64,000 nt of DNA from Actinobacteria bacterium UBA7524. GTDB lineage: Bacteria > Actinomycetota > Coriobacteriia > Anaerosomatales > UBA912. The stretch spans positions 18,991 to 82,990 of the forward strand of contig DLMY01000009.1 of NCBI GenBank assembly GCA_002478275.1, in the 5' to 3' direction. A program made the position numbers. This document shows positions 45,701 through 48,700 of the stretch, piece after piece. The number at the start of each line of letters is the position of its first letter. Within the stretch, counting starts at the first letter, position 1.

Positions 45701-48700
45701 GTGCATCCCGTGGCGGTGTTTCGCTCTCTCGGCGGCACGCCGCACGTGCTCGGCCCCCGAGACATGACACAGTGTCCGGTACGTCTCTTCGGAAGCTCCC
45801 TTCAAATCCACTCGCCAGACATCTATCAGGTTCCCGAGTAGGTCCAGCCCCGCCTCGGTGATGTAGCCGTTCGTGACCATGACAGTGAACAGGCCACGCC
45901 GACGGCACTCCGCTGCGACATCGATGACGTATTCCAGCCAGATGACAGGTTCGTTGTAGGTGAACGCCACGCCAGGGCACCGATAGCGTTGGGCCATCTC
46001 GACGACCATGACAGGTGTCAACGTGTGCAGCTGGTCCGCATCCTCCTCGGGAGTGGCTCTGCTGATGCGCCAGTTCTGGCAGTGCCCACACTTCATGCTG
46101 CAGCCGACGCTCCCGATGGATAGGACAGCTGCACCCGGGTTGAAATGGAAGACCGGCTTCTTCTCGATGGGATCGGCCGCGATCGAAGCGATGCGACCAT
46201 AGGTCATGGCCGCCAGCGTGCCGTCCACGTTGCGCCGCACGCCGCAGATACCTGATGCACCCTCGCCTATCAAGCATGCATTCGGGCACAGGCCACATCG
46301 GATGCGATCACCCTCTGGTGCCCAGAGCTGTGCCGTGTGCATACTGCCCCCTTATCCGGCCGACAACCTCACCTGGTCCCGGCCGGACTCCTTGGCCACA
46401 TATAGCGCCCGATCGGCGGCCTCGAGCAAGTCGAGTGGGGTGCCGTCAGGCACTCTGAGCGCTGCCACTCCTATCGAGATCGTCACGCTGATGGAAGGGG
46501 GATCCCCGTTCACGGGAACAGGCCTTCGCGCAATGGACTCCCTGAGCTTCTCGGCGACCGCGAAAGCGGCGGTCTTGTTCGTGGCAGGAAGAACAAGGGC
46601 GAATTCGTCACCACCGTACCTCACCGCGATATCAACATCGCGGACATCGGAGCACAAGGAGGTGGCGACCGATTTAAGCACGTGGTCTCCAGCGAGATGC
46701 CCGTACGTGTCGTTGACACGCTTGAAGCCATCGATGTCGATCATGAGCAGGGAGAGCGGTGTTTCGTAGCGCAACGCCCGTGCGACTTCCTCGACGATCC
46801 TGTCGTCAAATGCTCTTCGATTCCAGAGGCCCGTCAGTGCATCGAGAGTCGCTGTCCGTTCCAGTTCCTCGGCCACATTGGCGCAGCGACGGCGCTGCAA
46901 CGGGAAGCACATGTCCCAGCTCGAGTTCTTGTGGTAGATGGCCACAGCGTGTGCCTCACAGGTCTGGTATCCGCATGCCCCGCAGTCCAGCGTCTCATCA
47001 CGCGTCTCGAACTCACCTTCGGCGAGGATGAGGTCGATCTCCTCGGCAGGTGGTGTTACCTGATCGACTGGGGACGCACGGAACGACCTGAGTAGCGACA
47101 CCGTCGGCATATGGTCGAGTATCTCTCTGGTGGTCGCGTGCGACAGCGGCGCGGAGTCCCTCTCGGCGGCCATGATGTTGCGCTTGGCGAATACCGACAT
47201 CCCGGAGTTCACGGCGGGTCCGTCGATGCAGCCCTCGCAGTTGAGCATGTCGATGACCGCCGGCGCGGTCTCCCCGTCCATTATCGCTTTGAGCAGGTCA
47301 TCGAGCTGGCGAAGGCCGCGAACCTTCACCACCGTCTCGTCGATGGCCGTACGCTCGGCAAGCGTCTTGCGCGGAAAGCCGTCCGTGAGGGAGATCTCCT
47401 TGACCGGTTGCGGGCGCCTGGATCCCGCACGCGTACGACGACCGGTCTTCGGTGGCGCTCCCTGGAGCAAGCGCCCCAGTTCGGTGAAGTCTATGACGGC
47501 ATCGACAGCGCCCTCGAACTGAGGGTCGAAGGCCTCGTCCTTCCTCGCGTAGCAGGGCGAGACGTAGACCACCGCAGTACCTTCGGGATACATCGCCTTC
47601 ACGAGCCTGGCCTGGGCCACATAAGGCGGAACGACCGGCACGAGTGCACTTACGAGCCGAGGATAGAAGAGCCGGACCCAGTCGACCGCGACGGGACACG
47701 TGGAGCGGAGCGACAGCGGCGCACAGGGACGTGTGTGATCTCGCTCGTAGGCGAGCGCGACGAGCTCTTCGCCGAGCAGCGTGCTCTCCACCGCGAAGAA
47801 GCCAGCGTCTTCGAGCACGCGCTCGACTTCTTCGGGGGACCGGGGATGAAGGGCCGCCACGAACTCCGTCGCGAGCACCGCGACGACGGGGCGTCCACTG
47901 ACGAGCAGCTCTCGTACGCTGGCGGTATCGTCACGCACGCCATGCCCGCAATTACCGCACTCCGAGACGCAGAGGCCGCACTTCACGCAGCGTTCCTCGA
48001 TGATCTCGGTCCGGTGGTCCACTACTCGGATCGCACGCGCGGGGCAGTACCTCACGCAACCCCAACACTCGCGGCACGCGTCCTCATGGTTGGTGATCAG
48101 GAATCGGTCGGGTGCAGCAGAAGCCCCTCGCACCGCGCCGTCTGCCGGGCGGGTCATCTGTGAGCGATCACTCATCTCCACCCCCAACCGCTCGGCCCTC
48201 GACCCCCGCACCGAGCGTTCGTCCCAGTCCACTCCTCCGCACCGCGATCGACAACGGTAGGCCCATACCATACACCACGACCGCCTGCCCGATACAGACG
48301 GTGACAAACCCGAACGCGTACATGGCCGGCCAGCTGCCTTCAAGATCGAGCCCGAGCACAGGGATCTTATAGAGCCCCAGTCCGGCCAAGATGAAGGGCA
48401 GGTATGCCGGGACGATAACCGCATTGCTCAGCACCGGACCCGCGAGAGCGAGCACCGGACGCTCGCGCATCCGCCACGTCCAGGCGACACCGATCAGTGT
48501 AGCCACCGAACCGAACACCATGTCGAGTAGACCGATCGGCCCGACCTGGGTCAGCATGAATCCGTTCGCCACCGCGGTGCCGATCGTCAGCCCAGGGAGG
48601 GCCGCCGGGGTGACGAGCGCGAGCACCGTGAGGCTCTCGCTGACACGGAGTTGTATCGGCCCCCAGCCCAGGTATCCCAAAAACTGCACCGCGACAAGCG

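Follow-up and report, generated by a model that had tools for sequence, protein, structure and literature searches.

A sensory-hydrogenase-like Fe–S module with a rebuilt diiron pocket, fused to a GGDEF domain, as a probable redox input to c-di-GMP synthesis

Among described proteins, those nearest to the one analysed here are putative sensory [FeFe] hydrogenases. TamHydS of Thermoanaerobacter mathranii (group D, M2e) has two [4Fe-4S] motifs at its N-terminus, then an H-domain, then a C-terminal Cx2Cx4Cx16C motif; it is without a PAS domain and a proton-relay Cys, and its residues at M353 and M497 are Ser and Leu (excerpts of PMC8163306). No output domain follows; the protein binds [2Fe]adt and catalyses H2 turnover (excerpts of PMC8163306 and PMC13104023). 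TmHydS of Thermotoga maritima (group C, M2f) comprises three Fe–S parts in the same order, with a PAS signalling domain after the C-terminal cluster, a residue other than Cys at the C299 position, Gly at M353 and Ser at M497 (excerpts of PMC10055695). The C-terminal motif is common to M2e and M2f enzymes in the part of PMC8163306 available. Serving as the reference for residue positions is CpI, numbered after PMC10147833 and PMC10055695 and mapped by motif identity, in which A230-P231-S232, S323-P324-Q325, M353, K358 and M497 line or hydrogen-bond the [2Fe] subcluster (PMC10147833); according to the excerpts of PMC10055695, the residues hydrogen-bonded to [2Fe] are conserved in sensory enzymes. 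On the output side, the haem/O2 sensor DosC places a redox-active cofactor domain N-terminal to a GGDEF domain, and the state of the cofactor sets cyclase activity. The eukaryotic hydrogenase-like protein Nar1/NARFL has an H-domain that keeps its [4Fe-4S] ligands, is without the diiron site and works without HydEFG; it serves cytosolic Fe–S protein assembly, has no signalling output and belongs to a separate lineage.

The gene described here joins a module of the sensory type to a GGDEF domain. Coordinates are positions in the window, the whole 64,000-nucleotide stretch of DNA analysed; the gene corresponds to 65342-67165 on contig C10 of genome G000.

46352..48175, minus strand: fusion gene, 607 aa (open reading frame and translation, ATG at 48175)
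47948..48094, minus strand: 2x[4Fe-4S] ferredoxin-like domain, residues 28-76 (Pfam Fer4_10 at 28-73)
47216..47890, minus strand: H-domain, residues 96-320 (Fe_hyd_lg_C, PF02906, model 2-245 of 245)
46883..46990, minus strand: C-terminal Fe–S domain, residues 396-431 (FeS, PF04060, at 396-425)
46373..46852, minus strand: GGDEF domain, residues 442-601 (PF00990 and TIGR00254)

The ATG at 48175 is supported as the start by the homologues, whose alignments begin at residues 4-30; immediately 5' of this ATG is the G-rich stretch GGGGGTGGAG. The Pfam limits are the same as those of the domain calls (Fer4_10, Fe_hyd_lg_C, FeS and GGDEF) in an earlier note on this DNA, and its description of a sensory-hydrogenase core with a GGDEF output agrees with the Pfam matches and Cys positions, group C enzymes carrying PAS at that place. 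As it had also reported, PF02906 and PF00990 are both present in every one of the 120 best homologues listed, and TmHydA (7p5h_A) is the sole PDB match at E<=1e-8, here with residues 1-434 at E 2.8e-10. Its positions for the gene are window coordinates, and the remark in it that positions count along the contig is an error without consequence. The H-domain scores 96.4 bits (Pfam cut-off 22.1) and the GGDEF domain exceeds both curated cut-offs (PF00990, 162.3 against 23.8; TIGR00254, 179.6 against 37.4).

Within the ferredoxin domain are two CxxCxxCxxxC motifs (C34/37/40/44 and C63/66/69/73), with all eight Cys invariant in alignments A1 and A2. The H-domain cluster ligands are C160, C208, C313 and C316, among them the Cys of the bridge to [2Fe] in hydrogenases, and are invariant in 250 of 250 aligned sequences, and the C-terminal Cx2Cx4Cx16C motif is C398/401/406/423, all four of which are kept in every one of the 120 members of the clade to which the protein belongs; among 121 other relatives, three of the four are present in all and the fourth (C423) in 120. 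At the level of sequence, the 16 invariant Cys fall into four motifs of the [4Fe-4S] type: the ferredoxin domain has two, the H-domain and the C-terminal domain one each. No Pfam match to a PAS domain was found at E<=0.1 in the 607-aa protein; GGDEF begins at residue 442 instead. Aligned to WspR, its GGDEF active-site motif (residues 521-525) and its RxxD I-site (RDVD, residues 512-515) are intact, and c-di-GMP synthesis is predicted. The PDB entries for WspR and PleD match this part at 1e-37 to 1e-33 and the GGDEF domain of DosC (4zve) at 7.4e-30; the input halves differ, DosC having a globin with haem and the fusion protein four Fe–S cluster sites in a hydrogenase scaffold, folds and cofactors that are unrelated.

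Every TamHydS feature up to the residue at M497 recurs in the fusion protein, a likeness to group D (M2e) that rests on domain and residue traits. The fusion protein differs in that GGDEF comes immediately after these parts and other residues stand in place of those that hold [2Fe]; and whereas M2e genes, in the excerpts at hand, often lie beside group A hydrogenase genes, its genome has neither maturases nor a second H-domain. With TmHydS it shares the three Fe–S parts in their order, a signalling domain after the C-terminal cluster and the absence of Cys at the C299 position; it differs from that enzyme in having GGDEF for PAS and other residues at M353 and M497. Group C (HydS) genes frequently share an operon with a group A hydrogenase gene, whereas the neighbours of the fusion gene are QueT, radical SAM and DsbA-like genes.

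The clade is set apart by a rebuilt pocket at the site where a hydrogenase holds its diiron subcluster. The residues concerned are A102-T103-E104, R157-S-T159, P183-P184-Y185, S206, Y209, R211, D265 and L311, so that the [2Fe]-lining positions of CpI read A-T/S-E, P-P-Y, S, R and L across the clade. At P231, Pro is found in 111 of the 121 other relatives and in none of the 120 clade members, which have Thr or Ser; at S232, Ser (99/121) gives way to Glu (120/120). The S323-P324-Q325 position is S-P-M in other relatives and P-P-Y throughout the clade (120/120), and Lys at K358 (105/121) is replaced by Arg (120/120). The full P-S-P-K-G-G signature, present in 71 of the 121, occurs in no clade member; the clade reads (T/S)-E-P-R-D-G, nearly invariantly in 38 of 38 assessable genomic loci. 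Among the 149 nearest representatives, few outside the clade have Ser or Thr at the M353 position; S206 occupies this position in 117 of the 120 homologues listed, L311 the M497 position in 119, and the Y209 position is Tyr, Phe or Trp in all. The pocket equivalences agree across alignments to TmHydA, DdH and a canonical-pocket relative. That D265 corresponds to the GG motif rests on alignments to HydS-like proteins; HMMER places that stretch differently against DdH. A CxxC spacing (for CxxxC) between the last two cluster Cys was considered as a hallmark of the clade and rejected, being common among HydS-like relatives.

The domain is homologous to the H-domains of catalytic enzymes: a profile of the clade matches TmHydA at 2.2e-21, DdH at 5e-15 and CpI at 4.6e-13. 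The NCBIfam hydrogenase models all fall under their cut-offs (TIGR04105, 101.7 against 450; TIGR02512, 38.4 against 405.95; NF040763, 34.8 against 765). With the Pfam H-domain model, sequences from the order score 83-119 bits and those from sister orders about 290-320 bits.

The earlier note had described the proton-relay Cys as lost. That Cys is indeed gone, Thr159 standing at the C299 position in the TmHydA alignment (RSTCP for TSCCP) and in 119 of the 120 homologues listed, but its loss does not distinguish the clade: Ala, Ser, Pro and Thr are the commonest residues there in other relatives (99/121), and only 17% of sensory enzymes retain the Cys in the excerpts of PMC10055695. It is the rebuilt [2Fe] pocket that sets the clade apart, and the replacement of its residues by other, invariant ones is a new argument and a stronger one than the absence of maturases.

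We consider it probable, on the evidence of sequence, that the protein is a [4Fe-4S]-only redox or oxidant sensor gating c-di-GMP synthesis, which upholds the view of the earlier note that the domain probably works as a sensing Fe–S module and not as a hydrogenase. With comparable, moderate assurance we describe it as a soluble cytoplasmic diguanylate cyclase whose input module would derive from the putative sensory [FeFe] hydrogenases and would have lost the diiron subcluster. The rebuilt hydrogen-splitting pocket and the absent cofactor-assembly genes together imply that what is sensed is probably redox state and not hydrogen. The four cluster Cys are kept and the residue at K358 is still a basic one, so a diiron or other cofactor could still be accommodated.

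The replacements may themselves form a binding site. E104, R157, Y185, R211 and D265 are each present in all 120 homologues listed and in all 38 loci, an invariant set of charged or aromatic residues that does not look like random decay, and E104 with the RSTC motif is already common to basal members of the GGDEF-linked branch. The rebuilt pocket could thus bind a new partner, such as a metabolite, a gas (NO or CO) at the site-differentiated iron or a different metal, making the protein a ligand sensor and not one of bulk redox state. Paired acidic and basic residues could, however, merely fill and stabilise an empty cavity; the neighbouring QueT, radical SAM and DsbA-like genes suggest no candidate ligand, and block-wide synteny makes their adjacency unspecific. 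We hold this reading at low probability, and regard as similarly tentative its extension that the pocket beside [4Fe-4S]H, with its invariant Glu, Arg, Tyr and Asp, binds a gas, a metabolite or a cofactor not made by HydEFG and would constitute a new, order-wide type of Fe–S ligand sensor.

Sensing of H2 is unlikely. For the protein to be an H2 sensor still, with H2 controlling c-di-GMP synthesis, an H-cluster or close analogue would have to be built without HydEFG. The earlier note had found HydF in no genome of the order and HydG in none of 26; both absences held, now over all 146 genomes (0/146 over cut-off for each), and HydE, which it had left open, is likewise over cut-off in none of the 146. 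A lone HydE fragment (98.9 bits) was seen at a contig edge in genome G138. In the organism's own genome (82.9% complete), none of HydE, HydF and HydG was found over cut-off, the fusion gene is the single PF02906 locus, and no group A hydrogenase was found either in the genome or adjoining the gene. HydF absence discriminates poorly, because HydF likewise went unmatched in 165 of the 188 genomes of the class whose H-domain scores as canonical, in a class-wide scan that scored four candidates per genome only; in the same class outside the order, as an in-class control, HydF was found in 23 of 255 genomes. Nor is the absence of HydEFG by itself proof: in the excerpts of PMC11216029, the full maturase set is present in only 5 of the 130 archaeal genomes with an [FeFe] hydrogenase, enzymes from genomes without it are active after synthetic cofactor loading, and alternative maturation is proposed for archaea and some eukaryotes. 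Descent from HydS-like sensors, the invariance of the four cluster Cys, and the Ser at M353 and Leu at M497 as in TamHydS, which turns over H2 (excerpts of PMC8163306), speak for such a sensor, as do the organism's own hydrogenases: its genome has [NiFe] and possibly [NiFeSe] hydrogenase genes, and the organism does use H2. Set against this are the missing maturases and group A hydrogenase, H-domain Pfam scores about a third of canonical, and the residues holding [2Fe] (P231/S232, Q325 and K358), which are conserved in the sensory enzymes in the excerpts of PMC10055695 and all replaced in the fusion clade. The chance that H2 is what is sensed appears slim.

The fusion gene is a single-copy core gene of the order, found in 132 of 146 genomes (90 of the 98 of high quality) and nearly always in one copy. 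In the tree the clade forms the crown of a branch that is GGDEF-linked throughout (SH-aLRT 99) within the HydS-like superfamily, whose other branches carry kinase, sigma-54, MCP or PAS outputs; of the 149 representatives, 38 have the module joined to a kinase, 14 to a sigma-54 activator and 2 to an MCP domain. On average, pairs of sequences are 64% identical in the H-domain, 73% in the Fe–S domain and 56% in GGDEF. Degenerate GGDEF motifs occur in 22 of the 120 homologues listed and in 7 of 39 loci, and in those 22 homologues sensor identity is 68-75%. The conservation pattern indicates that the sensor module is maintained and not decaying, at least as well as the cyclase, and that control of a cyclase may not be the family's conserved role in every lineage. 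That the Fe–S module senses nothing, being an electron-transfer or scaffold part with GGDEF run mainly by its I-site or a c-di-GMP receptor, would fit those 22 dead motifs beside a fully conserved sensor and the Arg-x-x-(Asp/His) I-site kept by all nine near-paralogue representatives examined (eight RxxD, one RPTH), but GGDEF is intact in the fusion gene and in 98 of the 120, and fusion of the module to kinases, sigma-54 activators and MCP domains is the pattern of an input domain, so we give this very little credence.

Three other HydS-like GGDEF proteins, P0141, P0147 and P0226, have the same domain order and output (the fusion protein is collinear with P0147 over residues 32-604, at 35% identity) but keep the canonical APS, SPM, GPC..KK and GG. 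In the tree their nearest company is sensors with kinase or sigma-54 outputs, and they represent three separate fusions; it is these, not the fusion gene, that are plausible H2-to-c-di-GMP sensors. The literature search found no paper describing an H-domain fused to GGDEF, nor one on the canonical-pocket HydS-like type with GGDEF. From the ESM Atlas came only generic Fer4 + Fe_hyd_lg_C clusters (365-499 aa, scores 0.87-0.92), which serve as a lead only.

If the protein is the [4Fe-4S]-only redox sensor that we favour, the H-domain would bear its [4Fe-4S] cluster only, with the [2Fe] pocket filled or reshaped by the invariant polar residues E104, R157, Y185, Y209, R211 and D265. The cluster chain could follow the low-potential electron pool, or could suffer damage from O2, NO or other oxidants, and its oxidation state or integrity would shift the conformation of the C-terminal Fe–S domain. 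Located about 20 residues before GGDEF, that domain would alter the pairing of two GGDEF domains and with it the rate of c-di-GMP synthesis; this step, from the C-terminal cluster's state to output, is doubtful. The I-site would add product inhibition, and the c-di-GMP made would act through riboswitches and be removed by HD-GYP enzymes encoded nearby.

With input and output united in a single polypeptide whose product is easy to assay, the GGDEF-linked branch makes testable what putative sensory [FeFe] hydrogenases sense and how the signal passes. It also offers a graded series, from canonical pockets (P0141, P0147 and P0226) through intermediates that have E104 and RSTC with the Lys kept to the rebuilt crown clade, in which one could look for the residues that enable an H-domain to bind the diiron site; among basal members of the GGDEF branch, P0133 and P0153 retain the Lys. 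The fusion gene would represent a bacterial hydrogenase scaffold kept as a plain Fe–S protein after loss of the catalytic cofactor. Since it belongs to the core genes of this uncultured anaerobic order, it probably controls a fundamental switch in lifestyle there; were the ligand reading true, a new Fe–S sensor type would be wired to c-di-GMP across an order of subsurface Coriobacteriia-type bacteria.

The surroundings of the gene contain the following features.

48168..48761, minus strand: QueT-family transporter gene, directly upstream (PF06177, 114.5 bits)
45329..46342, minus strand: AmmeMemoRadiSam-type radical SAM gene, 9 nt downstream (TIGR04337, 316.6 bits; cut-off 220)
48853..50979, minus strand: PocR-GAF-HD-GYP gene, next upstream of QueT (Pfam PocR, GAF and HD_5; HD and GYP motifs in the translation)
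48796..48825, minus strand: promoter-like site upstream of QueT (consensus scan, 9/12 matches, extended -10 TG)

The stop codon of QueT overlaps the start of the fusion gene by 8 nt, in ATGAGTGA, and QueT is conserved upstream in 31 of 31 related loci; the two genes are likely in one transcription unit. The promoter-like site gives weak support to a QueT promoter, because the region has only two such sites, where chance would give 1.4. The radical SAM gene lies directly downstream in 29 of 30 assessable loci, and genome L040 has the sensor gene without it. Since the whole block, from a kinase gene to a glycosyltransferase gene, is syntenic, this adjacency is not specific. A role for the radical SAM protein as maturase of the H-domain was considered and is rejected for now, given these points, its AmmeMemoRadiSam-family score (316.6 bits) and the location of its AMMECR1 partner on another contig. 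Selenocysteine in the neighbouring DsbA-like gene was likewise considered and is not supported (hairpin after the TGA, z = 0.85; best SelB, 143.6 bits against a cut-off of 242).

Two c-di-GMP riboswitches, one of them upstream of a surface-protein gene, and two HD-GYP genes within the window indicate that c-di-GMP signalling is live in this region. The PocR-GAF-HD-GYP protein is likely a c-di-GMP phosphodiesterase of opposing activity. Its gene is adjacent in 8 of the 20 diverse loci, including L025, L026, L030-L032, L034 and L037, and lies elsewhere within the block in other diverse loci.

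The sensor gene encodes a protein of four Pfam domains, arranged as the earlier note had claimed and with the same residue ranges; the coordinates of that note proved to be window-based (the window being G000:C10:18991–82990 of the gene's own genome, G000) and not contig-based as it had stated.

Sensor gene and its domains.
46352..48175, minus strand: sensor gene ORF, 607 codons, ATG at 48175
Residues 28–73: Fer4_10 (Pfam)
Residues 96–320: Fe_hyd_lg_C, the H-domain (Pfam, full model, 96.4 bits)
Residues 396–425: FeS, PF04060 (Pfam)
Residues 442–601: GGDEF (Pfam, 162 bits)

The cyclase assignment is confirmed by NCBIfam (TIGR00254, 179.6 bits; cut-off 37.4), and the GGDEF half matches the structures of WspR and PleD (1e-37 to 1e-33). 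None of the curated NCBIfam hydrogenase models comes near its cut-off in this protein (TIGR04105, 101.7 against 450; TIGR02512, 38.4 against 406; NF040763, 34.8 against 765). Matched by residues 1–434 at E ≤ 1e-8 is a single PDB chain, 7p5h_A (HydA from the HydABC complex of Thermotoga; 2.8e-10), for which a 16-member clade profile improves the E-value to 2.2e-21; the same profile finds the Desulfovibrio enzyme (DdH) at 5e-15 and CpI at 4.6e-13. Among the 20 cysteines, eight form two CxxCxxCxxxC motifs, C160, C208, C313 and C316 correspond in the alignment to the four cubane ligands of the H-domain, and C398, C401, C406 and C423 form a Cx2Cx4Cx16C motif, which PMC8163306 gives as the C-terminal cluster motif of subclasses M2e and M2f; all sixteen would bind clusters. 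Intact in the output domain are the GGDEF motif (521–525) and, five residues upstream of it, the RxxD site (512–515).

The [2Fe] pocket was compared over residues 1–470 of 250 proteins: the 120 close homologues (best listed), 9 near-paralogue representatives and 121 other representatives, with 19 of the 269 retrieved left out as shorter than 480 residues. The four cluster cysteines of the H-domain are invariant in all 250. The loss of the proton-relay cysteine, as observed previously, is real (Thr in 119/120 close homologues) and is not distinctive of the clade, since the counts for the 121 other relatives, in which Ala, Ser, Pro and Thr are commonest at this position (99/121), agree with PMC10055695. 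By its aligned residues, the clade is instead set apart at positions lining or hydrogen-bonding the diiron site, as taken from CpI (PMC10147833).

Diiron-site positions (CpI numbering) in 121 other relatives and 120 close homologues.
A230-P231-S232: others A-P-S (Pro 111, Ser 99); close homologues A-(T/S)-E (Glu 120/120)
S323-P324-Q325: others S-P-M; close homologues P-P-Y (120/120)
M353: others Gly 116; close homologues Ser 117
K358: others Lys 105, Arg 4; close homologues Arg 120
G-G after the F417 position: others G-G; close homologues D-G

The complete P-S-P-K-G-G signature is present in 71/121 other relatives and in none of the clade, whose own signature is near letter-identical in all 38 genomic loci that could be assessed, spread over many of the order's families. 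These equivalences are supported by HMMER alignments to TmHydA and DdH and by a collinear BLASTP alignment to a relative with a canonical pocket. The CpI numbers of clade residues were assigned by motif identity and not by structure superposition; the mapping of D265 is the weakest equivalence because HMMER aligns that stretch to DdH differently.

We think it rather probable that the H-domain retains only the cubane, lacking [2Fe], and that the protein is a four-cluster Fe-S sensor gating c-di-GMP synthesis. It would read the low-potential redox state of the cell or oxidants, and gate synthesis via the Fe-S domain adjoining GGDEF; the signal and its direction, and control of the cyclase through its dimer, we infer. 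This relay through the C-terminal cluster is weakened by TamHydS, a putative sensory hydrogenase of group D, in which that cluster is reported (PMC13104023) not to be reduced under H2. The rebuilt pocket, with its near-invariant replacements, might alternatively hold a new ligand or cofactor, which we regard as unlikely. Full-text searches, whose scope lay outside subscription journals and supplements, found no paper on a HydS-like or [FeFe]-hydrogenase–GGDEF fusion.

The sensor half is present in 132/146 species genomes of the order, 90/98 high-quality ones and 70/76 genera, nearly always in single copy; G000 itself (1.81 Mb in 60 contigs, with a completeness of 82.9%) has one PF02906 locus, as do 131/146 genomes of the order. 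Full-length copies score 83–119 bits, with the sole exception of genome G124 (290 bits, on a short contig). This locus (G124:C104:117–971) is the order's only second, canonical-scoring H-domain; the match begins 117 bases into the contig, no maturase is over cut-off in that genome, and the copy may reflect contamination or have been gained recently.

The reported lack of HydF and HydG holds throughout the order, with no HydF match at E ≤ 1e-30 among the 146 genomes and HydG over cut-off in 0/146 (five sub-threshold, partial-model matches, 161–191 bits). HydE, unsearched in the earlier note, is over cut-off in 0/146, with one contig-edge fragment of 98.9 bits. In the class sample (401 genomes, 255 of them outside the order), the HydF cut-off is exceeded in 23 genomes, none of which belongs to the order, so the search is able to find HydF in relatives. 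H-domains of about 290–320 bits occur in 188 of the 255, and HydF over cut-off in only 23 of those 188, in a search that scored four candidates per genome and may have missed some; either HydF was missed, or many such bacteria hold a canonical-looking H-domain without it. The absence of HydF alone is therefore a poor discriminator in this class, a point also made for archaea and some eukaryotes in PMC11216029. Many of the HydF-negative genomes with a 290–320-bit H-domain belong to one genus (g88), with a frame of about 660 residues. That the protein is a genuine H2 sensor, matured by an unconventional route, is very unlikely in our estimate.

Searched with phmmer against 1.84 billion representatives, the sensor half gave 2771 matches at E ≤ 1e-3, of which 384 reach E ≤ 1e-30. 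Outputs were assigned by Pfam scans (thresholds 1e-5 and 1e-9) to 149 representatives among the matches listed, P0008 excepted.

Outputs among the 149 listed representatives.
Histidine kinase: 38
GGDEF: 20
Sigma-54 activator: 14
MCP: 2
PAS only, no detected output, or truncated: 75

As these outputs vary, the Fe-S/H-domain module is a general input domain. In a FastTree phylogeny of 142 rows and 406 columns (12 randomly sampled close homologues of the 120 and all 130 others), a 29-row all-GGDEF branch separates from the remaining 113 rows with support 100; in an IQ-TREE quick search of 60 rows, with two long-branch rows left out, SH-aLRT is 99 for this split and 100 for the crown that contains the sensor gene. 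Eight proteins are basal in the branch (P0133, P0134, P0136, P0142, P0153, P0191, P0243 and P0261). Nearly all of them share E104 and an RSTC motif, and they retain the SPM-like, Gly and GG residues, with Lys in only two, so that the branch appears graded in sequence, from canonical-like residues in basal members to the rebuilt pocket of the crown. Three further, separate GGDEF fusions (P0141, P0147 and P0226), lying amid kinase- and sigma-54-linked proteins, have fully canonical pockets. In residues and domains, as distinct from tree placement, the sensor gene resembles TamHydS (Ser at M353, Leu at M497, no PAS; PMC8163306) and differs from the group C TmHydS, which has Gly at M353 and Ser at M497 (PMC10055695).

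Mean pairwise identity across 120 homologues.
Ferredoxin domain: 64%
H-domain: 64%
C-terminal Fe-S domain: 73%
GGDEF: 56%

By these identities, the sensor is constrained at least as strongly as the cyclase. The GGDEF motif is degenerate in 22/120 listed homologues and in 7/39 loci (L022–L024, L029, L040, L046 and L048), three of the seven from the order's largest family, with the forms RGDQF, TGDRF, VGDRF, GGDQF, AGGEF, VADQF and TGDQF. These proteins, with sensor domains 68–75% identical, keep the RxxD site, the pocket signature and every one of the sixteen cluster cysteines; the sensor thus outlasts the cyclase motif within the family. The output has probably turned non-catalytic in some lineages, where such copies may bind c-di-GMP instead of making it; that of the window's own gene is intact. 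That the Fe-S module is a non-sensing scaffold we consider highly improbable.

The sensor gene starts within the end of a QueT-family transporter gene, its ATG and the transporter's stop codon overlapping by 8 nt; two HD-GYP genes, one of them of PocR-GAF-HD-GYP type, and a gene for a HAMP histidine kinase also lie upstream.

Genes downstream of the sensor gene.
45329–46342, minus strand: AmmeMemoRadiSam-type radical SAM gene, 9 nt downstream
44604–45296, minus strand: DsbA-like gene, after the radical SAM gene
43279–44562, minus strand: gene for a 427-residue protein, after the DsbA-like gene; family-2 glycosyltransferases in ESM Atlas (0.99)

The QueT–sensor–radical SAM adjacency recurs in 29/30 assessable related loci and is not specific, because the whole block is syntenic. 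The radical SAM gene is separated from its usual partners: an AMMECR1-type domain lies on another contig (G000:C15:20591–21490, 140.9 bits), in a 452-residue frame that is also weakly Memo-like (22.3 bits, below cut-off). In one genome the sensor is kept and the radical SAM gene is missing. For these three reasons, we do not at present take the enzyme to be a maturase of the sensor.

An in-frame TGA in the DsbA-like gene falls exactly at the expected first Cys of CxxC (FFDYA-U-PFC), and if it is read as Sec, the Pfam DSBA match grows from 26–189 of the model (70.7 bits) to 2–189 (102.8 bits). Sec gains no support from the hairpin 3' of the TGA, no better than shuffles (z = 0.85), or from a search for SelB, which gave no match over cut-off in the genome (83% complete). 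The 427-residue protein matches no Pfam or NCBIfam family; it is 56–81% identical across the order, always within the block, and has a DDD motif. Our guess is that it is tied to c-di-GMP-controlled polysaccharide synthesis.

Two riboswitches lie elsewhere in the window.

16687–16783, plus strand: c-di-GMP-I riboswitch, 60.3 bits
19917–20007, minus strand: c-di-GMP-II riboswitch, 55 bits

The second is upstream of a 660-residue ORF (17680..19662, minus strand) with DUF11 and SdrD B-like domains, whose product resembles a surface protein or adhesin; no family was found for the plus-strand ORF overlapping it, and no Pfam family for the 210-residue ORF that follows the c-di-GMP-I riboswitch. The genome has eight GGDEF loci and also [NiFe]-type hydrogenase genes: a large subunit at G000:C45:800–2269 (minus strand, 526.5 bits, full model), whose single in-frame TGA is what a [NiFeSe] enzyme would be expected to have, and a second large-subunit locus at G000:C45:26752–27897.
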